Origin: a virus
Lineage: Duplodnaviria; Caudoviricetes
Virus record (IMG/VR): IMGVR_UViG_3300018405_000011
Strand: one strand, 5' to 3'
Length of the DNA stretch: 64,000 bases
Made by a program: the position numbers and the translations under genes. This document shows, one piece after another, positions 18,205 to 57,399 of this stretch (the first letter of the stretch is position 1; every line of letters starts with the position of its first letter). A model generated the notes under the pieces. The model was given only the letters and a program-made list of their open reading frames with translations, was not told where the DNA came from and made no database searches.

Positions 18205-19779
18205 TTACCAACCGTCTTCAATATCATCTTCTACAATGTAACCGCCCGTAGTAATGGCTTCTGCCCCACCATCAAAGCCTGCAAAGCTGTATAACGCATT
18301 GCCTTCTGGTGCTTCGACATCTAAGTCATCTACGATTCCATACGGGGTGAACTCGTAGTAGAATGTCTTATGTTTAATCGGCGTAGAGTCACTGGTACCA
18401 CGGCGTTTACCCAATGAAGCGGTTAAGAACTTCTTATCACCGATTTCGTGGATATGCAGTAGCATCTCCCCATCCAGTTTTTGACTCAACCCCATTGCGT
18501 TATAGTAGTAGCTACCTTCAGCAAACTTCTTCGCAATGTTTGATGTACCTTCACGGGCTAACTTACGGGCATCACTGGATAGCTGATGGGCAGTAAGCTG
18601 GGTAATACCACGAGGGAAACAGTGGTTACGCAATACTTCAAAAGTATAGGTAATGATTTCATCCGTACGTTTACCGCTCTTGCCTGTGTACTTTTTAGTA
18701 ATCAGTTCAGGATAGTCGACAATAACCGCGTGTATCTCATACCCTTTTGCTTCATAATAACTGAGTACATCAATAAGGTCCCATACATCAAACTGGTTAG
18801 GGTCATAGCAGCGCATTTCAAACTCATAACCGTTCACGCGTAAGCGGTCGATGACATAACGTGCTGCTTCGTCCGCATCCACAGAGGCTAAGTCTAACTT
18901 TTGTTTGTGTTCTTGTTCCCACAACGAGCGATAAATAAGCGGTAAGTCCTGCTCGATTTTGTTTTCGAACGACAAACGCAGAATAAGGGGCTTTTTATTC
19001 TTATCAAGCATGTGTGGGACATTGTAAAGCGGGAACCATCGGCAATAGTCGAGTAGAATACCCGTTTTATAGTTGTGCGTAAGCGCGCCGTAGTTAAACT
19101 GTTCGCCACGGAAATGTCCTAAGCCGCCTAATGCGCGGTTAAGGCCTTTAAGCCCAGTACGCAATACCCCTTCCACGGAGTTAAGCTCTTGAGTCCGTCT
19201 CATCGCTTCTACAACCGAATCTATGTCCGAAGTAGAGAGTGACCCACTAAACCCTTTCTTTTCTTCTTCGCCGGTGTTTTCAAACTCACGGATGCGCTCT
19301 AGCATCTCTTTAGCGTGGGCTAGGATGTCAATGCTGCCATCACCAAAGTTTATGTCTTTATTGGCTTTCCTATAAAGTAAGGCGTATTCATGATTACGGA
19401 TAGAGTGTTGGAGTTCACTGATGATAGTCTTTACGCGTTCAGCGTTTTGGTACATGTCATCGTACAACGTACATTGACGCTCTAGTGAGGCGATATAGTC
19501 ACTTGCAAATGCACAGTTCAAACGAATGCGTTCGATAAGGTCTATCTTGTCAACCTTAATATCTGAGGGTAGTGTGCGCAGCCAATCTAAGGTGGCTCTT
19601 AATGCATGGGCAATTTCCCCATCACTGCCTTCGCCCATGACATCGGCAGGCATCTTAATTAAAGCAATGGCTCGGTCTACTACCGATTCCAATTTACCAT
19701 TAGGCTCAGCTAAATGACGATTGATATACCAGCCTACGACGGACTTCACAAGAACTAGGTTTGGGTTTTCGTTAATCAT
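18205..19779 (-). CDS. dnaB: Replicative DnaB-like helicase (phiKZ gp118-like)
   Basis: Variant Walker A GALTHNYKT, Walker B VIVDY, TAHQLS motif, KRRG arginine finger; divergent from the capsid gene as in phiKZ. Confidence 0.85.
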   Translation of the reverse strand: MINENPNLVLVKSVVGWYINRHLAEPNGKLESVVDRAIALIKMPADVMGEGSDGEIAHALRATLDWLRTLPSDIKVDKIDLIERIRLNCAFASDYIASLERQCTLYDDMYQNAERVKTIISELQHSIRNHEYALLYRKANKDINFGDGSIDILAHAKEMLERIREFENTGEEEKKGFSGSLSTSDIDSVVEAMRRTQELNSVEGVLRTGLKGLNRALGGLGHFRGEQFNYGALTHNYKTGILLDYCRWFPLYNVPHMLDKNKKPLILRLSFENKIEQDLPLIYRSLWEQEHKQKLDLASVDADEAARYVIDRLRVNGYEFEMRCYDPNQFDVWDLIDVLSYYEAKGYEIHAVIVDYPELITKKYTGKSGKRTDEIITYTFEVLRNHCFPRGITQLTAHQLSSDARKLAREGTSNIAKKFAEGSYYYNAMGLSQKLDGEMLLHIHEIGDKKFLTASLGKRRGTSDSTPIKHKTFYYEFTPYGIVDDLDVEAPEGNALYSFAGFDGGAEAITTGGYIVEDDIEDGW

Positions 19780-39197: not shown

Positions 39198-39202
39198 GAT
39201 AT

Positions 39203-39240
39203 CTAGAGGTATAGGGTTTCCCCTATACCTCTAGCCTTTT
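39203..39240 (+). terminator. Intrinsic terminator
   Basis: 14 bp stem CTAGAGGTATAGGG / CCCTATACCTCTAG plus CCTTTT. Confidence 0.8.
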
Positions 39241-39301
39241 AAACATTTCTTTTTTATTTGTGTGCGGAAATCATGTGAACCAGATAAGAGGATTTATAAC
39301 C

Positions 39302-42538: not shown

Positions 42539-42542
42539 CATT

Positions 42543-42575
42543 AAAAGCACTGGGTTACTCCTAGTGCTTTTATTT
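42543..42575 (+). terminator. Probable terminator
   Basis: AAAAGCACT...AGTGCTTTT followed by ATTTT. Confidence 0.65.
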
Positions 42576-42608
42576 TCATCATCTTATGTATTATAAAAAG
42601 GAATACCC

Positions 42609-44626: not shown

Positions 44627-44666
44627 ATTAATAGTCCTAGGAGCATCGGCTCCTAGGACTATTAAT
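44627..44666. terminator. Bidirectional terminator
   Basis: 18 bp stem ATTAATAGTCCTAGGAGC / GCTCCTAGGACTATTAAT between convergent genes. Confidence 0.85.
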
Positions 44667-45382: not shown

Positions 45383-45501
45383 TAAGGGCTCCCTAGCCAT
45401 GGTTAATGTTATCATAGTGATGTAAACCACCCATGGGATTCCTAAAGGTAAATATTAACGATACGCAAACATCCCATGTTACTGATAAAAGAGGAAAGGT
45501 T

Positions 45502-46209
45502 ATGAAAGATAAACTGACTGAGTTTTTAAATGCAAACCCAGAAGTAATGCAAGACTGGTTAGAAGGCGGCAGTAATATAAAGTCTGTCTATAAATCCCTC
45601 ATTCGTGAACAACTGGGCAATCCAGTTATATTCTTAGATGTAGATGAAGTCATACAAGTTCATCGTGCTCACTTACAGGGTCTCATGATAGACCCCGTTG
45701 CTGTAGAGCTGATTCAGAGACTCTGTGACCTAACGGGGGCGAGAATTGTCTATGCTAGCGTATGGGGTACCTTTATGAACGATGGTATTACGGCGTCTTC
45801 TATTCACGAAGCGTTTGGCTTTAAAGGAATGTCATTGATGCAGACTGCGGATGGCACAGAAATGCCATGGCGTCTAGAATCCGTAACTGGAAGTGGTAAC
45901 CGTGGACGCTCTGTTCAGAAGTATCTGGCTGATAACCCACACATTAAAAACTATGTCGTTATTGATGACAGTTGGTCTGATTACATGGAAATACTGGATA
46001 AGGTCGTTGCACCAGACGGCATTGAAGGCTTCGGCGTTCGTGACTTCTACCGTGCTAAAGACATACTCGTACACGGACAGGTTCGCTCACCTGAAGAGAC
46101 ACGTCTGCCCTTTATTTACCCGCACCGTTCTCAAGGTTGCGTACGTGATATGAAAACGCCATTAGAAATCTGGCAGCTAGAACAACAAATTAAAGATAAG
46201 GAAAGCTAA
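45502..46209 (+). CDS. HAD-superfamily phosphatase, Swiss-Army-Knife RNA-repair-like type
   Basis: FLDVDEVI (DxD), IVYASVW, RG..VQKYL, YVVIDDS; ATG 45502 after GAGGAAAGG. Confidence 0.7.
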   Translation: MKDKLTEFLNANPEVMQDWLEGGSNIKSVYKSLIREQLGNPVIFLDVDEVIQVHRAHLQGLMIDPVAVELIQRLCDLTGARIVYASVWGTFMNDGITASSIHEAFGFKGMSLMQTADGTEMPWRLESVTGSGNRGRSVQKYLADNPHIKNYVVIDDSWSDYMEILDKVVAPDGIEGFGVRDFYRAKDILVHGQVRSPEETRLPFIYPHRSQGCVRDMKTPLEIWQLEQQIKDKES

Positions 46210-46793
46210 TGTTAGATAAGAAATGTAAAATGTGTCTTAAAGAAGGCATGGTCTATGACGAACGTGGTTCCGTGGACCGACATGTTGTGATGGGACACTG
46301 CGGGCATTGTGGTGCGCTTGTGCGTAAGCAAACCAAACCTATGGTGTCCATGGAAACATGGTTAAACATAAAGGATGAAGTATTAGTCCTTAATGAAGCA
46401 GAGTCTGACGGGTATTGGGATAAACACGCGGCGCTTAATAAGGCACTGGAGTACCTTAAAACCAACGAAGTCTGCACGACTTGTCATACAGGACACGTGG
46501 AACCTTATGCCGACCTTAGCTTAGGTGAAGAGCCTACACCGCTGATACTCTATCGTAAGTGTGGAAACCCAGACTGCGCATCCGAACCAGTAGTTTTTAC
46601 GGATGACGAATCCGACGTTCGCGTGATCATTGACTGTTTACGTGGCATGGAGAACCCAATTGCCGTAAGTCTGTCCGTGTTATACGAAGCCCGTTTATTA
46701 GGGTTTAAAGTACATGACGACGAAGGTCACTACTTAGACATCGATTTTCTGGCACAGCAAATAATGGAGCACGCTAATGATCATCAGCAGTAA
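46209..46793 (+). CDS. Multi-zinc-ribbon protein
   Basis: CKMC, CGHC, CTTC, CGNPDC; TAATG coupling to the HAD gene. Confidence 0.6.
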   Translation: MLDKKCKMCLKEGMVYDERGSVDRHVVMGHCGHCGALVRKQTKPMVSMETWLNIKDEVLVLNEAESDGYWDKHAALNKALEYLKTNEVCTTCHTGHVEPYADLSLGEEPTPLILYRKCGNPDCASEPVVFTDDESDVRVIIDCLRGMENPIAVSLSVLYEARLLGFKVHDDEGHYLDIDFLAQQIMEHANDHQQ

Positions 46794-47781
46794 GCATGAC
46801 GTAGACAGTCACGTCTACAACTACATCCATGACAGTGGCGTACAGACTACCGTTAAAGTCTCACCATCGGGTCACTACCGCCAGGACAACTTAGACCGAA
46901 CACAACCGGTTACTCAAGATAAACGTAAATACTCGGTTATCATCTCTTCGTCTGTAGGCTGCCCTTTAAGCTGTCAGTTCTGTCATCTAACCTTACTGAA
47001 TAAACCGCATCGTGCGCTGAGTCATAAGGAAATCACGGATAACGTACTGGAAGCGATTCACGTCACCCGTGACCATGAAGACTTAAGTAGTCGCTATATC
47101 AAGCTCTGCTTTATGGGGGAAGGGGAAGCCATCCTAAACATCAGTAATGTCCGAATAGCGGCACTGGACATCATTAGTGGCGTAATGGAGCGAGGATGGG
47201 CAGCGGGGTTAGACGGTGTAGACATCGCCACCGCTTTCCCAAATGTAGGGGTAGGGAAACTCTACGAAATCATCGCCTTTAACCATGAGCTTTCTGTTAA
47301 GTGGCCTCTAAATCCGCATAACTACGAACTAAACGTTCGTGGGGAGTTTAGGTCAGTCGTCCGCTTGTTCTACTCAATGCACCATTCTAACGATGTCGAC
47401 AGAGCGAAGCTCATGCCGGGCACGGCACCACTAAGCGACGCATTACGCCGACTAGGCACCATTGCCAACAGTTCGGTAAACTTAGTTATCCACTACATGT
47501 TTATTGAAGGGGTTAATGACAGCTCAGACCAAGTCAATGAACTGGTCAATCTCATTAATGGGTTAGAGTATGCGTATAAGATACAGTTTAGAATCTTACG
47601 CTATAACCCGCCTAATGCAGATACTCGTGAAAGTCCTAGACTAAAAGACATTGTCAGTTATCTACAAGACGACTTAGCCGTGGACTTTATTAAGGTACAG
47701 TATTCTGCAGGTGAAGCTATTAAAGGTGCATGCGGGATGTTTATGGACGATATGGTCGAGGTTACTCATGGCAAAGCCTAA
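46777..47781 (+). CDS. Cfr/RlmN-family radical SAM enzyme (putative RNA methyltransferase), divergent active site
   Basis: SSSVGCPLSCQFC (CX3CX2C), FMGEGEA, SMHH..D..RAKLMP, GVNDS, RYNP, GACG (C-terminal Cys). Confidence 0.8.
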   Translation: MIISSKHDVDSHVYNYIHDSGVQTTVKVSPSGHYRQDNLDRTQPVTQDKRKYSVIISSSVGCPLSCQFCHLTLLNKPHRALSHKEITDNVLEAIHVTRDHEDLSSRYIKLCFMGEGEAILNISNVRIAALDIISGVMERGWAAGLDGVDIATAFPNVGVGKLYEIIAFNHELSVKWPLNPHNYELNVRGEFRSVVRLFYSMHHSNDVDRAKLMPGTAPLSDALRRLGTIANSSVNLVIHYMFIEGVNDSSDQVNELVNLINGLEYAYKIQFRILRYNPPNADTRESPRLKDIVSYLQDDLAVDFIKVQYSAGEAIKGACGMFMDDMVEVTHGKA

Positions 47782-48229
47782 CTGGAAACTACGTCGGGTT
47801 ACCGTAAAGTTAACCCTAAGTTGGGTCACGGTAATGTGTGGTTACTTGCTCTATCGTGGTAATGGGGAATCCATGCTGCATGAAACATTGGTGTCTAATC
47901 TACTGCTATTAGCGTTTTTAGTGGTTGGCGGCTATGTGTTTGGAGTCGCATCCGATAACCATGTTAACGGCAGTGGTGAAGAAGACACGAGTGGGTCAGG
48001 TAAGGACACGGCATTAGGTACATGGTCAGAACGACGTAAGGTCATTCTAAGGGCACTGGTACTTTGCGCGGGAGCACTTACCTATTTAATGCTCTACGGG
48101 GAAGACAGCACGTTAAACAGCACCTTTGCATCAGGACTATGTCTGTTCTATGCCGGCGTAATTAATAGCTGGATATTTGGCGGCGTCTATGACGACTACG
48201 CCATTAAGCAAAAACTAAATAAGGAATAA
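47768..48229 (+). CDS. Membrane protein made of two internal repeats
   Basis: ATG 47768 after GAGG; two W..RR-TM-TM-(Y/W)(V/I)FG..D units. Confidence 0.6.
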   Translation: MAKPNWKLRRVTVKLTLSWVTVMCGYLLYRGNGESMLHETLVSNLLLLAFLVVGGYVFGVASDNHVNGSGEEDTSGSGKDTALGTWSERRKVILRALVLCAGALTYLMLYGEDSTLNSTFASGLCLFYAGVINSWIFGGVYDDYAIKQKLNKE

Positions 48230-48234
48230 ACTTC

Positions 48235-49410
48235 ATGTTTATTAACAAAATACCGTCTAGTCGCTTGCGGCTATGGACTTTAACTAATATTAGCTTTACG
48301 AGTGTAGTATTATCCGTGTGTCTATTAGAGGTCTTGAGCTTATACCTTAAGACTGGAGAAACATTAACATGGACCGGAGTTACATTAGCCGACTCTTTAT
48401 GGGTGATTGGTTTATGGTGGGTAGGTTGCATTATACTCTATGCTATCCTTGACTCACTAACCTATGATAATCGTCATATTGAATACCTTAATAAAACAGG
48501 GCGATGGCATTGGGCTCCTATTGTTATTTTGGCCGTTGTTATTAATGCCTTGGTTGAAGAACCAACACAGGGTCCGATTATAGCCACTGAACTCGTACTT
48601 CATGCCTTTACTAAAATGGGATACTTTATTGTACTCTATCCCTTTATAGACGCCGTGATGGAAGGGGTATTAAATCCTTACGAAAAAGGACGTATCCTAG
48701 ACCGCTTTTTTATTACGCGTATACGCAATACTACGGCATGGCGCCGGTACGTATTTCATGCAGGTAGACTGCAGTGGGACATTAGTCTAGTCGGCCCACG
48801 TGGGCCTGAATTCATGGTTACAGTCGACCCTGATGGAGAAGAACAGTTTCACCTATGGATAAACTGTGGTTTGTTTGGCATCGGTTTCTCCTCTGCCCAA
48901 ATCCCTTATCTAAGCAGTCGTTTATTTAAAGGACATTATCGGTTAGGGTTTTACACGTGTACAACGCACCTATGTATTGCCCTTATGGAGAATGAAGACT
49001 TCCGTGGTTGGCAAGGGGGTAGAAACTTTATCTTTCACTGGGAGACTATGCTTAAAGGTAAAGAAACGGTAGAGTGCAGTGAGGAAGTATCGCGAGGATG
49101 TTTTCAGTTCCCGACTATTCCTCAAGAAGGCTATCCAGAAGAACAGCTAACATTACAGGTAACTTCCTGTATACTGAAACGTCGCTATAGCCGATGGTTC
49201 TCACCGCCTGACCTAGAACGCTTCCATGTGTTCACCAAAACCGATGAAAAGGTAGCACGTGTACCTGGCAAGGGAGAAAACGGGTGGGACTGCGACGATG
49301 AGTACGGAATTGACGTATGGTTAGCCGCTCGACCGATTACAGCTATGACGCCTAGACAGGCGGCTCAAGAAGTCATTGCTGATCTAGCACAAACTCGCTC
49401 ACGTCGTTAG
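48235..49410 (+). CDS. Hypothetical protein with multi-pass membrane N-terminus and soluble C-terminus
   Basis: AAGGA RBS; about four hydrophobic segments in the first 145 aa. Confidence 0.55.
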   Translation: MFINKIPSSRLRLWTLTNISFTSVVLSVCLLEVLSLYLKTGETLTWTGVTLADSLWVIGLWWVGCIILYAILDSLTYDNRHIEYLNKTGRWHWAPIVILAVVINALVEEPTQGPIIATELVLHAFTKMGYFIVLYPFIDAVMEGVLNPYEKGRILDRFFITRIRNTTAWRRYVFHAGRLQWDISLVGPRGPEFMVTVDPDGEEQFHLWINCGLFGIGFSSAQIPYLSSRLFKGHYRLGFYTCTTHLCIALMENEDFRGWQGGRNFIFHWETMLKGKETVECSEEVSRGCFQFPTIPQEGYPEEQLTLQVTSCILKRRYSRWFSPPDLERFHVFTKTDEKVARVPGKGENGWDCDDEYGIDVWLAARPITAMTPRQAAQEVIADLAQTRSRR

Positions 49411-49442
49411 ACGTGAGCTTTACTGCTATAAGGATATGATAA

Positions 49443-49907
49443 ATGAACATCGATGGATTTGAAACCCTCAGTCTTTACCCTAAAGAAAATATAGCGAGTT
49501 TTAAAATCCACGCTGCTAGACGAGAATATCTAAACTTTCTAGTAAACCACGAAGTCCGTGTGGTATGCCCTAAGTGTGGAAGTAAGCAGATACAGCTTAT
49601 GCCAGACGGAACTGTAGATAAGCCCGTATGGCGCTGCCGTTTAGACAAGGAGCGTTTCTCCGTAGACGGCATTCCTCTTGCCTGGCCCCAGGTTACACTT
49701 TTTGAGTTTATGACCCGCGTAAGAGCAAAGGTAGCGGAGTCACCTGACCACCTACCTCTCTTTACCCAACTTAAAGAACGGATACTGACAGGTGTTGATG
49801 ACAGCATCAGTTATATTGAAAAGTTAAAAGAACAACACCCGTATTGGGCAACTACCATTAACGATATTGAGCGCGATGCTAAACTGCTCTTTAACAGCGA
49901 GGTATAG
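49443..49907 (+). CDS. Hypothetical protein with zinc-ribbon-like motif
   Basis: CPKCGS...WRC; AAGGA RBS. Confidence 0.5.
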   Translation: MNIDGFETLSLYPKENIASFKIHAARREYLNFLVNHEVRVVCPKCGSKQIQLMPDGTVDKPVWRCRLDKERFSVDGIPLAWPQVTLFEFMTRVRAKVAESPDHLPLFTQLKERILTGVDDSISYIEKLKEQHPYWATTINDIERDAKLLFNSEV

Positions 49908-49910
49908 GCA

Positions 49911-50576
49911 ATGGGTACTAACCTAATTGATATTTTTGTAGCGCTATTAAGCCAGCCTATGGCAAAGAAAGAGTACTTAAACTTAGGGTACTTGCAGATA
50001 CGCGTTAATCGCCTTATTATTAAGATTACTGACATTACTGTAATTGCAGGCACCTACTGTGTCACTGGCACCATCATTGGTAAATTGAACGTTTCGGGGA
50101 AACACGTTTATTACGATGCCCCTAAAGAACTCATTTTACACATCAACGATGAAAATTGTCACCACTACGAACATACGGCAGATATGCCTACGTCGTATCT
50201 GCAAGGAAGTCTGCGCTTATTAGAACACGTTAGGGGCGGCGACCCTATAGACGTAGTCAATGACGCTGTTAACAACATGCAGTTAATCGGTCTCTACAAT
50301 CCCGCGACTCAAGAGTTACTCGAGTGCTTAATCATACCCGCTAGTGGCTATGACCATACGCGAATGGATGGGGTAAGTAAACACCTTTACTACGACTTAC
50401 AGTTTTTATGTCGTACAGCGAATTCTGTCTATTCACTGCCGGGACTAAAGCTTACTTATGCCGAACTCATTAGCTATTTACATAACTACCTTATCGTTCC
50501 TAAATTGATAGCGACAACAGGCGACGCTCGCTTATACGCCGATGTGCCAGAGTGGGCGTATTTAGGTAACATGTAG
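49911..50576 (+). CDS. Hypothetical protein
   Basis: GAGG RBS; 221 aa. Confidence 0.5.
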   Translation: MGTNLIDIFVALLSQPMAKKEYLNLGYLQIRVNRLIIKITDITVIAGTYCVTGTIIGKLNVSGKHVYYDAPKELILHINDENCHHYEHTADMPTSYLQGSLRLLEHVRGGDPIDVVNDAVNNMQLIGLYNPATQELLECLIIPASGYDHTRMDGVSKHLYYDLQFLCRTANSVYSLPGLKLTYAELISYLHNYLIVPKLIATTGDARLYADVPEWAYLGNM

Positions 50577-50591
50577 TCTTTAATAAACGTA

Positions 50592-50618
50592 TTTCCATAT
50601 AAACAAAACTTATTATAC
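50592..50618 (+). promoter_or_regulatory. Possible variant early promoter
   Basis: TTTCCA-N7-AAAACT-TATTATAC, a near match to the three consensus sites. Confidence 0.35.
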
Positions 50619-50630
50619 CCTAAGGATTAA

Positions 50631-51539
50631 ATGATGACTGAGTTTGAAAAAGCATTTGGTGTTCCGTCCAATGACCCTTCTCTAAGAGGGGCTTCGTTTC
50701 TAGCCCGACGAAACGAGTGTTACCGTTATGTTGGTGTACATACGCCTGACCCTTTAGGTGACAGTTATGTTGTACTACAATGCGCCATAACTGACGAAAT
50801 TTACATGCGCAGCGAGATGATTAGCTGGGGCGCATATAACCTGATGTTAAAACCGGAAAAGGGGAAGCTCATCTATATCGAAGGTGTAGACTCTGTAGGG
50901 AAAGCCACACAGACTCGTTTATTAGCGGCGCATCTACGTAGTCTAGGAAAATATGTGGTTACCTTAACCTACCCTAACTATGGTAAACCGATTGGTCAAA
51001 TCATTAAACGTTATTTAAATGGAGAGTTCGGTGAAGCGTCTACTATACATCCAGAACTCATAAGCTGCGCGTATGCCTTAGACCGAGCTAAAGACTCCAG
51101 CTTTATTAAGCAGGCACTAGAAGACGGCCACTGGGTTATCCTAGATAGAAGCCCCTATTCTAACAGTGCCTTCCAAGGAGGTAAGCTCGACCATGAAGAC
51201 GGGATGGTGGTAGCACGTCACCTAGCAGCATTAGAGTTTGATGCAGTAAACTTCCCTAAACCAGATAAAGTGTTCTTCTTAGATGCTAAACCATCGATAG
51301 CGATGGAGCTTATGGCTTCTCGCTCTAAACATGCCAGCGTTGCCGCTGATGGTAAGAAAGACCAACATGAATCTAATCATCAACTCTTAGACTCAGCCTA
51401 TGGCATCTATAAAGCTCTCTGTGAAGAGAACAGCGAGTGGGAAGGCATTCCTATCATAGATACGCAAACAGAGGCTCTGCGTACACCAGAGGCCATTAGT
51501 AAAGAGATACAGTCATTTGTATCGCAATGGATAAAGTAG
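50631..51539 (+). CDS. tmk: Thymidylate (dTMP) kinase with about 70 aa N-terminal extension
   Basis: IEGVDSVGKATQT P-loop, ILDRSPYSN..FQG, PDKVFFLD. Confidence 0.85.
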   Translation: MMTEFEKAFGVPSNDPSLRGASFLARRNECYRYVGVHTPDPLGDSYVVLQCAITDEIYMRSEMISWGAYNLMLKPEKGKLIYIEGVDSVGKATQTRLLAAHLRSLGKYVVTLTYPNYGKPIGQIIKRYLNGEFGEASTIHPELISCAYALDRAKDSSFIKQALEDGHWVILDRSPYSNSAFQGGKLDHEDGMVVARHLAALEFDAVNFPKPDKVFFLDAKPSIAMELMASRSKHASVAADGKKDQHESNHQLLDSAYGIYKALCEENSEWEGIPIIDTQTEALRTPEAISKEIQSFVSQWIK

Positions 51540-51554
51540 GGTAGACTGATAGAT

Positions 51555-51588
51555 ACAGGGAGTAGCACTGCGCTACTCCCTGTGTTTC
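51555..51588 (+). terminator. Intrinsic terminator
   Basis: ACAGGGAGTAGC / GCTACTCCCTGT plus GTTT. Confidence 0.75.
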
Positions 51589-52028: not shown

Positions 52029-52035
52029 TTTAACT

Positions 52036-52068
52036 TGGGAATAGGGCATATCTGCCCTATTCCCATTT
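52036..52068 (+). terminator. Hairpin, probable terminator
   Basis: 13 bp stem TGGGAATAGGGCA / TGCCCTATTCCCA followed by a pyrimidine tract. Confidence 0.7.
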
Positions 52069-52112
52069 CCTACTCCCTTTCTATTTTTATTATGAAAAAA
52101 GGATGACGAAAA

Positions 52113-53524: not shown

Positions 53525-53542
53525 CCCCCTTAATTACTGATT

Positions 53543-53570
53543 AGGCAGGAATACACGTGTATTCCTGCCT
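53543..53570. repeat. Perfect 28 bp palindrome followed by a T-run
   Basis: AGGCAGGAATACAC|GTGTATTCCTGCCT then GTCTATTTTTT. Confidence 0.85.
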
Positions 53571-53613
53571 GTCTATTTTTTAACCCCCCCTCCTTTTTTA
53601 TAAGGTGATTTTA

Positions 53614-55177: not shown

Positions 55178-55666
55178 ATGAATACTAATATGACAAAACC
55201 AATTGCAATTATTTGCATTGGTCCTGGGTGTTCAGGGAAGTCTACCTTTGCTCGCAAACTGGTTGCGGAAAAGCAATTTGTCGAAGTGAACCGCGACAGC
55301 ATTCGTTTTCCTGATGGGGTTATCGATTGGTCAAAGTGGGAAAGCACTCCAGCTAACGAGCAGGAAGTAACGGACGACTGGAACCGTCGCTTAGATAATG
55401 CAATTTGCTTAGGTAAGAACATTGTTATTAGTGATACTAATTTAAATGTTAATCGCCGTGAAGAATATTTGTCACGCAAGCTTACCTTAGCGGGCTACGA
55501 AGTAGAACTGAAGTACTTTGTAGAAAATCTACTTACTCTATTGACGCGCAATGCCGAGCGCGATAAAGACGCTCTGCCTGAAGAAGTTATCGTTTCGCAG
55601 CAACGGAGACTACTCCGTGAACTAATGGACGAAGCCGATGACGTTTTAGCTTCCATTCGTAACTAA
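55178..55666 (+). CDS. Polynucleotide 5'-kinase domain (T4 PseT N-terminal-like), without the phosphatase domain
   Basis: GPGCSGKST, VNRDSIR, VISDTNLN, RNAER...LPE.VI parallel the T4 PNK kinase module. Confidence 0.8.
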   Translation: MNTNMTKPIAIICIGPGCSGKSTFARKLVAEKQFVEVNRDSIRFPDGVIDWSKWESTPANEQEVTDDWNRRLDNAICLGKNIVISDTNLNVNRREEYLSRKLTLAGYEVELKYFVENLLTLLTRNAERDKDALPEEVIVSQQRRLLRELMDEADDVLASIRN

Positions 55667-57316: not shown

Positions 57317-57351
57317 CTCATCTTTTTGATTTATATTGAAAAATTAGACAA

Positions 57352-57383
57352 TTACTAGAGGAGACCTTAGTCTCCTCTAGTAA
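57352..57383. terminator. Bidirectional terminator; copy 2 of the 26 nt direct repeat
   Basis: TTACTAGAGGAGAC-CTTA-GTCTCCTCTAGTAA between convergent genes. Confidence 0.8.
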
Positions 57384-57399
57384 TATCAATCTTCCTTTT

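Follow-up and report, generated by a model that had tools for sequence, protein, structure and literature searches.

A frequent way for hosts to stop phages is to cut their own tRNAs; the counter-measures of phages are poorly charted beyond the Pnkp/Rnl1 pair of T4 and the carriage of spare tRNAs. In bacteria, Pnkp/Hen1 repairs the cut RNA and then sets a 2'-O-methylation that blocks re-cleavage. The products of RlmN/Cfr enzymes are 2-methyladenosine (m2A) or 8-methyladenosine (m8A) at position A2503 of 23S rRNA and m2A at position 37 of tRNA (m2A37). Among phosphatases of the HAD superfamily, which are classified by their caps, a capless fold favours macromolecular substrates. Here, we analysed a stretch of 64,000 nucleotides of a tailed virus (Caudoviricetes; IMG/VR record IMGVR_UViG_3300018405_000011), in the following called the window, in which eight co-directional genes at 45502-51539 include one for a phosphatase of the family HAD_SAK_2 (hereafter HAD) and one for an RlmN/Cfr-like radical S-adenosylmethionine (SAM) enzyme. 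For the phosphatase, part of the ground is already known, as stand-alone SAK-type HADs and polynucleotide kinases (Pnk) of jumbo phages were assigned to RNA repair by Iyer et al. 2021 (PMC7824862).

We found that both enzymes are tied to tRNA biology by their gene contexts in other phages and that a true Pnk kinase is encoded nearby; this supports an action of both gene products on RNA. The two genes are, in contrast to what a dedicated system would suggest, not inherited together. We thus favour a mosaic unit that holds two RNA-directed enzymes, a reading to which we give about an even chance of being correct.

The phosphatase and the radical SAM enzyme

The first gene of the unit codes for a protein that matches the Pfam family HAD_SAK_2 (PF18143) with an E-value of 5.6e-15 (56.4 bits versus a cut-off of 27.5). 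HAD motifs I-IV (DxD, S/T, K/R and DD) are intact, represented by D46/D48, S86, R134 and D155/D156, and these residues are invariant or nearly so in 38 relatives. The AlphaFold 2 model, with a predicted local distance difference test score (pLDDT) of 87.8, displays a capless Rossmannoid HAD fold. In structure comparisons, the closest match was MDP-1 (Z 9.4), followed by SCP1 (Z 8.4) and the phosphatase of T4 Pnkp (Z 8.2), all of them capless and acting on macromolecules, and the core covers nearly the whole of such enzymes (131 of 162 residues of MDP-1 and 120 of 142 of the T4 Pnkp phosphatase). No significant sequence match was obtained in the PDB, and the best Foldseek match had an E-value of ~0.05. 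Judging from the gene contexts of its family in other phages, this capless HAD would most likely act on the terminal phosphate of RNA ends.

Searches with single proteins turned out to be poor tools for both families (the radical SAM enzyme as sole query retrieved no locus, and a word-index search with the HAD two proteins); alignments and an exhaustive search were used instead. The latter yielded 412 HAD_SAK_2 relatives at E<=1e-3, mostly stand-alone proteins of ~150 amino acids. Some relatives (P0126, P0240, P0150 and P0193) reach 370-550 amino acids and comprise two or three tandem HAD_SAK_2 domains and no other Pfam domain. In the 87 phage loci compared, partners known from tRNA repair recur near HAD_SAK_2. 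The most complete case is a single lineage (L068, L076, L115 and L117), in which genes for PolA, HAD_SAK_2, a minimal CCA-adding enzyme, Pnkp, a WDGH protein and a Thg1-like 3'-5' polymerase lie on one strand within ~6 kb (L068:7159-16133). Elsewhere, the HAD gene and the start of a CCA+HD gene overlap (L038), a CCA enzyme is encoded 1.5 kb away (L085) or Rnl1 is found at a distance of 0.8 kb (L106). A tRNA gene is present within 1 kb of the HAD gene in ten of the 87 loci, several of these within arrays of 18-25 tRNAs. Nothing informative was annotated around the HAD homologs of Vibrio phage pir03 and Aeromonas phage Aeh1.

The radical SAM enzyme, product of the third gene, matches the RlmN profile TIGR00048 (E 3.9e-20), Cfr models (~1e-18) and Cfr/RlmN entries of the PDB (~1e-9), but stays far under the equivalog cut-offs (72 bits versus 290 for TIGR00048; 64-67 versus 468-550 for the Cfr models). 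In structure comparisons of its AlphaFold 2 model (pLDDT 90.6), RlmN and Cfr occupy the top 11 Foldseek matches with E-values of 1e-14 to 1e-10, followed by pyruvate formate-lyase activase as the next structural family (7e-7). The protein is a member of a clade found only in phages, which spans more than 100 sequence clusters and has only four invariant cysteines. Three of them (C62, C66 and C69) form the CxxxCxxC cluster; the fourth, C319 in a GACG motif, aligns with the methyl carrier C355 of RlmN (AACG) and is invariant in 37 sequences. At the position of the resolving C118 of RlmN, seven residues before the first cluster cysteine, the enzyme has Ile55, and Ile, Phe, Val or Leu stand there in all phage members. 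The N-terminal domain of RlmN (PF21016) is also absent: no Pfam match was obtained for it, and the phage proteins begin after it in the alignment. By its sequence, the enzyme is like RlmN/Cfr in outline and fails one defining feature, the resolving cysteine.

After clustering at 70% identity, four of 19 lineages have the radical SAM gene embedded in tRNA arrays, the closest tRNA gene being 11 to about 900 nt away. In a complete phage genome of 128 kb, the gene of a 48% identical relative (L004/L009) lies upstream of Rnl1 and Pnkp, separated from them by one small gene; Pnkp lies 5-8 kb from the radical SAM gene in two further contigs, and phage CcrColossus has a CCA enzyme gene 1.7 kb downstream of it. 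Other neighbours in several phages are a resolvase, DNA ligase together with rIIB, NrdD, or hypothetical genes alone. Across the phages compared, the radical SAM gene is not flanked by any conserved partner, and its annotated neighbourhood in phage 201phi2-1 was uninformative. Cultured phages with a member of the family include 201phi2-1 (gp434), Psa21, Klebsiella phage 05F01 (gene_104) and CcrColossus (gp283).

Some details of the tRNA arrays were recorded in passing. They were seen in the loci L015, L016, L021, L017/L019/L028 and L033, lie ~10 kb into each locus and comprise up to 25 genes; the tRNA genes nearest to the radical SAM gene, at 11-890 nt, are those for Leu(CAA), Ile(GAU), Glu(UUC) and Gln(UUG). 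One contig carries both a tmRNA-like gene and a tRNA with the amber-reading anticodon CUA, called tRNA-Pyl by ARAGORN (L021:12513-12908 and 18278-18353), which may serve stop-codon suppression or recoding.

Inheritance and layout of the unit

But, do the two enzymes travel together? Apart from the present unit, HAD and radical SAM genes share a locus only in L003, a relative whose radical SAM enzyme is 65% identical; L003 keeps the entire gene order and has one extra gene. HAD_SAK_2 was present in one of the 20 IMG/VR contigs that bear the radical SAM gene, more than 200 kb away from it, and none of the 85 other HAD loci contained a radical SAM gene. The nearest complete relative is Vibrio phage vB_VmeM-Yong XC31 (hereafter Yong XC31), whose HAD is 45% identical. 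Its gene order is endolysin, PhoH, HAD, a homolog of the 194-amino-acid zinc (Zn) protein in the same position, another gene in the slot of the radical SAM enzyme, a four-transmembrane (4-TM) protein and the 391-amino-acid protein. Since this slot contains an unrelated orphan of 304 amino acids in Yong XC31 (L034:13962-14876; hhalign probability 0.4%, no Pfam match), it is, as far as the sequence comparison goes, an insertion hot spot in a conserved backbone. In Yong XC31, Tmk is encoded on the same strand 15.5 kb further downstream, and a gene for a CCA-adding enzyme lies in between.

In three metagenomic relatives with HADs of 40-43% identity, the HAD gene is located beside or near Tmk. L037 has the order HAD, 4-TM protein, 391-amino-acid-like protein, a gene of 143 amino acids, Tmk, a gene of 72 amino acids and ThyA. 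In L039, Tmk stands directly upstream of the HAD gene, and the homologs of the 4-TM and 391-amino-acid proteins are kept. In L040, Tmk is divergent and adjacent to the HAD gene, with ThyX nearby. Because they are kept in whole or in part in Yong XC31, L037, L039 and L040, without the radical SAM gene, the genes for HAD, 4-TM protein, 391-amino-acid protein and Tmk are, on this comparison, the backbone of the unit; the radical SAM gene and those for proteins of 154 and 221 amino acids are specific to the present lineage and L003.

Two candidate partnerships were rejected. One was a recurrent split Pnkp, composed of a kinase-only Pnk and HAD_SAK_2: no other HAD locus has a kinase-only neighbour within 10 kb. 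The other saw the Zn protein as an RNA-binding subunit of the truncated radical SAM enzyme: the Zn protein is present in Yong XC31 in the absence of the radical SAM gene, which has no constant partner elsewhere.

In the window, the junctions between the eight genes, read directly from the sequence, are in order a TAATG, overlaps of 17 and 14 nt, and gaps of 5, 32, 3 and 54 nt. By the overlaps, the genes for HAD, Zn protein, radical SAM enzyme and 4-TM protein are translationally coupled. A 215-kb contig carries identical genes as an independent copy of the unit, and an independent gene caller placed all gene starts of the unit identically on this contig. The gene upstream of the unit is on the opposite strand, hairpins flank the unit, and the hairpin scan found none inside it as strong as the flanking two; for these reasons, 45502-51539 is plausible as a single transcription unit. 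The initial annotation, made from the sequence of the window, had delimited the unit in the same way, and all the features that it described, the three overlaps among them, are present at the positions given. Profile, motif and structure matches also bear out its family assignments, namely an RNA-repair-type HAD, a multi-Zn-ribbon protein, a Cfr/RlmN-like radical SAM enzyme, a duplicated membrane protein and tmk, and the stand-alone PNK kinase domain that it placed at 55178 does align with the motifs of T4 Pnk. The features are listed in Table 1.

Table 1 Features of the unit and its surroundings in the window
Feature	Position	Strand	Length (amino acids)	Remarks
Hairpin, 18-bp palindrome with T-rich tail	44627-44666			Between convergent genes, two genes upstream of the unit; bidirectional terminator-like
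Divergent intergenic region	45383-45501			Likely promoter region; AGAGGAAAGG ribosome-binding site before the ATG at 45502
HAD_SAK_2 phosphatase	45502-46209	+	235	Capless core residues 39-195
Four-CxxC Zn protein	46209-46793	+	194	CKMC, CGHC, CTTC, CGNPDC; two predicted Zn ribbons
RlmN/Cfr-like radical SAM enzyme	46777-47781	+	334	Cluster C62/C66/C69; C319; Ile55 at the position of RlmN C118
4-TM protein, internally duplicated	47768-48229	+	153	PHROG 14936
TM-anchored protein	48235-49410	+	391	N-terminal TM helices; conserved soluble C-terminal domain, ~residues 130-391
Zn-ribbon-like protein	49443-49907	+	154	One CPKC motif; seen only here and in L003
Orphan	49911-50576	+	221	Seen only here and in L003
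Thymidylate kinase Tmk	50631-51539	+		PF02223, E 2.6e-24; TIGR00041, 84.4 bits versus cut-off 83.25
Hairpin, 16-bp stem, then T-rich tail	51551-51587	+		Terminator-like end of the unit
Kinase-only T4 Pnk homolog	55178-55666	+	162	Separate unit, beyond two further hairpins, 3.6 kb downstream

The kinase at 55178 was identified by matches to AAA_33 (E 6e-13) and to PHROG 505, 'polynucleotide kinase' (E 6e-27). It aligns with residues 5-145 of the T4 Pnk kinase domain (1ly1/1ltq) at an E-value of 1e-8, and the P-loop, NRD..R, SDTNLN and RN..R motifs are matched. A fused C-terminal HAD_PNKP phosphatase domain is missing, as the protein consists of the kinase domain alone.

The best-conserved gene of the unit is that of the 4-TM protein, with 61% identity to Yong XC31 (E 3e-58) and 38% to phage BONAISHI. 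Its two halves align with 28% identity over 65 amino acids (E 2e-5), and half-length homologs with a single TM hairpin were noticed in Rhizobium phages of 50 kb. In Tmk, the P-loop and the DR(Y/S) motif are invariant (alignment A3). An N-terminal extension of ~75 amino acids (window 50631-50860), for which no family match was obtained, is kept in L003, L037 and L039, but not in L040. For the Zn proteins and the 4-TM, 391- and 221-amino-acid proteins, Pfam, PHROG and NCBIfam gave no useful match beyond PHROGs without an assigned function, and look-ups of the 391- and 194-amino-acid proteins in a protein atlas returned low-confidence or generic zinc-ribbon matches only.

The unit is surrounded by genes for a GH19 endolysin, PhoH, a HU-like protein and a protein with a weak match to a phiKZ internal head protein. 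The sequencing runs listed for the stretch are freshwater metagenomes, with DNA runs and no RNA run among them, and a near-identity DNA search of a phage collection returned no match; no cultured phage is close in DNA sequence. PADLOC matched no defence family, and in the window no Rfam family was matched at gathering score.

Long, near-perfect, GC-containing hairpins with T-runs were also observed at 39198-39259, 42539-42608, 52029-52112, 53542-53571 and 57351-57384; the hairpins of the window seem to punctuate the clusters of + strand genes and to delimit short transcription units. The sequence TATATTAC, which resembles the core of phiKZ early promoters, occurs at four intergenic sites just upstream of + strand genes (22671, 35213, 51605 and 53517, all +), two of them directly after strong hairpins. 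With nine occurrences in the window versus four expected, it is weakly enriched. No exact copy was present at 45383-45501, upstream of the HAD unit.

Proposed roles and alternatives

What might such a unit do? We suggest that 45502-51539 is a single transcription unit of a phiKZ-like jumbo phage, bounded by terminators and translationally coupled. Its ancestral backbone would consist of HAD_SAK_2, the 4-TM protein, the TM-anchored 391-amino-acid protein and Tmk, with the Zn protein also common to Yong XC31. Into this backbone, lineage-specific genes would have been inserted, the chief one being the radical SAM gene, from a family that appears to move between unrelated large phages. Where RNA has been cleaved, probably at the 3' ends of tRNA, the HAD would remove the terminal phosphate. 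The radical SAM enzyme would C-methylate an adenine in tRNA (A37-like) or rRNA, with Cys319 as methyl carrier. Because the second cysteine is absent, its resolution chemistry would have to differ from that of RlmN. The kinase-only Pnk would phosphorylate 5'-OH ends, and sealing would need a ligase from elsewhere in the phage genome or from the host. Whereas the gene content, the coupling, the assignments to families and folds and the contexts in other phages are direct results, these substrates, and any cooperation between the genes, are inferred.

Several results weigh against this proposal. The Z-scores of the phosphatase across the HAD subfamilies are tied within ~1, so that structure does not fix the class of its substrate. 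Without an equivalent of C118, canonical RlmN turnover should stall, and 11 of the 19 radical SAM lineages show neither a tRNA nor a repair context. The location of four of 19 lineages beside tRNA genes (p ~0.01, assuming a base rate of 5%) and of Pnkp within 10 kb in three of four Pnkp-bearing radical SAM contigs (p ~0.02, random placement along the contig) would be unusual by chance, but both nulls are crude and of our own arithmetic, and phage accessory genes cluster. The record searched for the window is a 62.7-kb IMG/VR virus record, judged ~22% complete, to which the negative results on ligases and tRNA genes for this phage refer; genome-wide ones refer to Yong XC31 only. In this record, profile searches revealed no Rnl1, Rnl2-type ligase or RtcB, as the initial annotation had noted for ligases in general, and neither a tRNA gene nor a CCA enzyme or Thg1-like gene was present. 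The complete genome of Yong XC31 is devoid of Rnl1, Rnl2-type ligase, RtcB and AAA_33 kinase, which argues against a simple role in end healing and sealing in this clade. Finally, the persistent neighbour of the HAD gene in the close clade is Tmk, with ThyA or ThyX near in two relatives, an arrangement that likewise speaks against such a simple role and also fits nucleotide metabolism.

Such a metabolic role is the strongest of the alternatives, and we consider it unlikely. The HAD would dephosphorylate (deoxy)nucleotides and, together with Tmk and in relatives with ThyA/ThyX, shape the pools of deoxynucleoside triphosphates (dNTPs), while the radical SAM gene would be an unrelated passenger. 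The HAD gene adjoins or nears Tmk in five clade arrangements (here, L003, L037, L039 and L040), classical phage-induced nucleotidases for dTMP or deoxynucleoside monophosphates (dNMPs) shape dNTP pools, and the T4 Pnkp phosphatase also hydrolyses 3'-dNMPs. However, this proximity can be inherited synteny, and the large distance in Yong XC31, with the CCA enzyme in between, fits poorly. Among 80 more distant HAD_SAK_2 phage loci, none has Tmk within 10 kb, whereas genes for CCA enzymes, Pnkp, Rnl1, Thg1-like proteins and tRNAs recur there, and the predicted capless fold points to macromolecular substrates as well.

Distinctly unlikely in our view is a dedicated counter-defence kit, as had been proposed in the initial annotation: HAD and kinase would heal tRNA or rRNA ends cut by nucleases, the radical SAM enzyme would mark RNA against re-cutting, and the Zn and membrane proteins would be accessory. 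The translational coupling of the first four genes speaks for it, as do the tRNA and repair contexts of both enzyme families elsewhere and the radical SAM relative upstream of Rnl1 and Pnkp in L004, which in concept is a repair-plus-modify layout. However, tight gene overlap in a jumbo phage, taken alone, does not point to a functional system. The near absence of HAD and radical SAM genes from each other's loci is largely the lack of co-occurrence that the initial annotation had itself named as evidence against the kit, and Yong XC31 maintains the backbone without radical SAM enzyme, Pnk-type kinase or RNA ligase. The radical SAM gene has no constant partner, and the membrane proteins and Tmk have no evident RNA role and belong to the older syntenic backbone. 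A coupled kit is thus unsupported, since this lineage alone has brought HAD and radical SAM genes together, all other genes are backbone or orphans, and the window holds no ligase. Of the idea of an operon for RNA repair or modification, the link of both enzymes to tRNA or repair contexts in other phages holds; their co-inheritance does not.

A further, highly doubtful possibility concerns the chemistry. As the phage RlmN-like family has lost the resolving cysteine and the N-terminal domain and recurs in tRNA arrays and beside Rnl1-Pnkp, it could represent tRNA-directed radical SAM enzymes of a new class, with non-canonical chemistry. The methylene-bridged adduct may be resolved by another route, or a stable covalent enzyme-tRNA adduct may be formed. 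In this phage, the enzyme would then act with the HAD and the kinase-only Pnk to protect or restore tRNAs attacked by anticodon or acceptor-end nucleases of the host.

Least probable of all is an absence of any RNA function, with the HAD dephosphorylating a protein or another macromolecule, the radical SAM enzyme acting on DNA or a metabolite and the contexts reflecting a clustering of accessory early genes, for although the nearest HAD structures include the protein phosphatases MDP-1, SCP1 and UBLCP1, the radical SAM gene stands beside resolvase, DNA ligase with rIIB or NrdD genes in several phages and its chemistry may differ in the absence of C118, fold and sequence are specifically those of RlmN/Cfr with an invariant methyl-carrier cysteine, and the repeated, independent occurrence of both families in tRNA-array and Rnl1/Pnkp/CCA contexts is hard to obtain by chance.

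Comparison with described systems

As a proposed mosaic unit with two putatively RNA-directed enzymes, the locus shares features with several known systems and differs from each of them. It resembles the tRNA repair of T4 (Pnkp and Rnl1) and the SAK-type HADs of jumbo phages in that its kinase is homologous to T4 Pnk and its HAD family has been assigned to RNA repair before. Unlike in T4 Pnkp, kinase and phosphatase are encoded by separate genes in different units, and the phosphatase is a member of HAD_SAK_2 instead of the HAD family of Pnkp; in contrast to the T4 pair, neither the window nor Yong XC31, the nearest complete relative, yielded a ligase.

With RlmN and Cfr, the phage enzyme has in common the CxxxCxxC cluster, a GxGE-type SAM motif, the C-terminal GACG cysteine that corresponds to C355 and the overall fold. 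It differs in lacking the N-terminal domain and C118, in its sub-equivalog scores and in its membership of a phage-only clade. Such a clade without the resolving cysteine appears to be unreported in the literature searched, and so does its placement in tRNA arrays and next to Rnl1-Pnkp. This large phage-only family, present in tRNA arrays without a cysteine thought essential for the turnover of RlmN/Cfr, is one of two leads that emerge from the analysis. The other is the uncharacterised capless HAD family that recurs beside the tRNA-end repair genes for CCA-adding enzyme, Pnkp and Thg1-like protein; the occurrence of HAD_SAK_2 inside such clusters likewise appears to be unreported in the literature searched.

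To Pnkp/Hen1, the likeness is one of concept, as end healing is combined with a methyltransferase and, in L004, a radical SAM gene is located near Rnl1 and Pnkp. The predicted reaction here is a radical SAM C-methylation of a base, in contrast to the 2'-O-methylation of ribose, and the partnership is neither fused nor conserved but confined to one lineage. Lastly, phage tRNA-care clusters, with their CCA enzymes, Thg1-like proteins, Pnkp and tRNA arrays, differ from the window by those of their genes that it lacks, namely tRNA, CCA enzyme and Thg1-like genes, but the HAD_SAK_2 and radical SAM families are each found inside clusters of exactly this kind in other phages.

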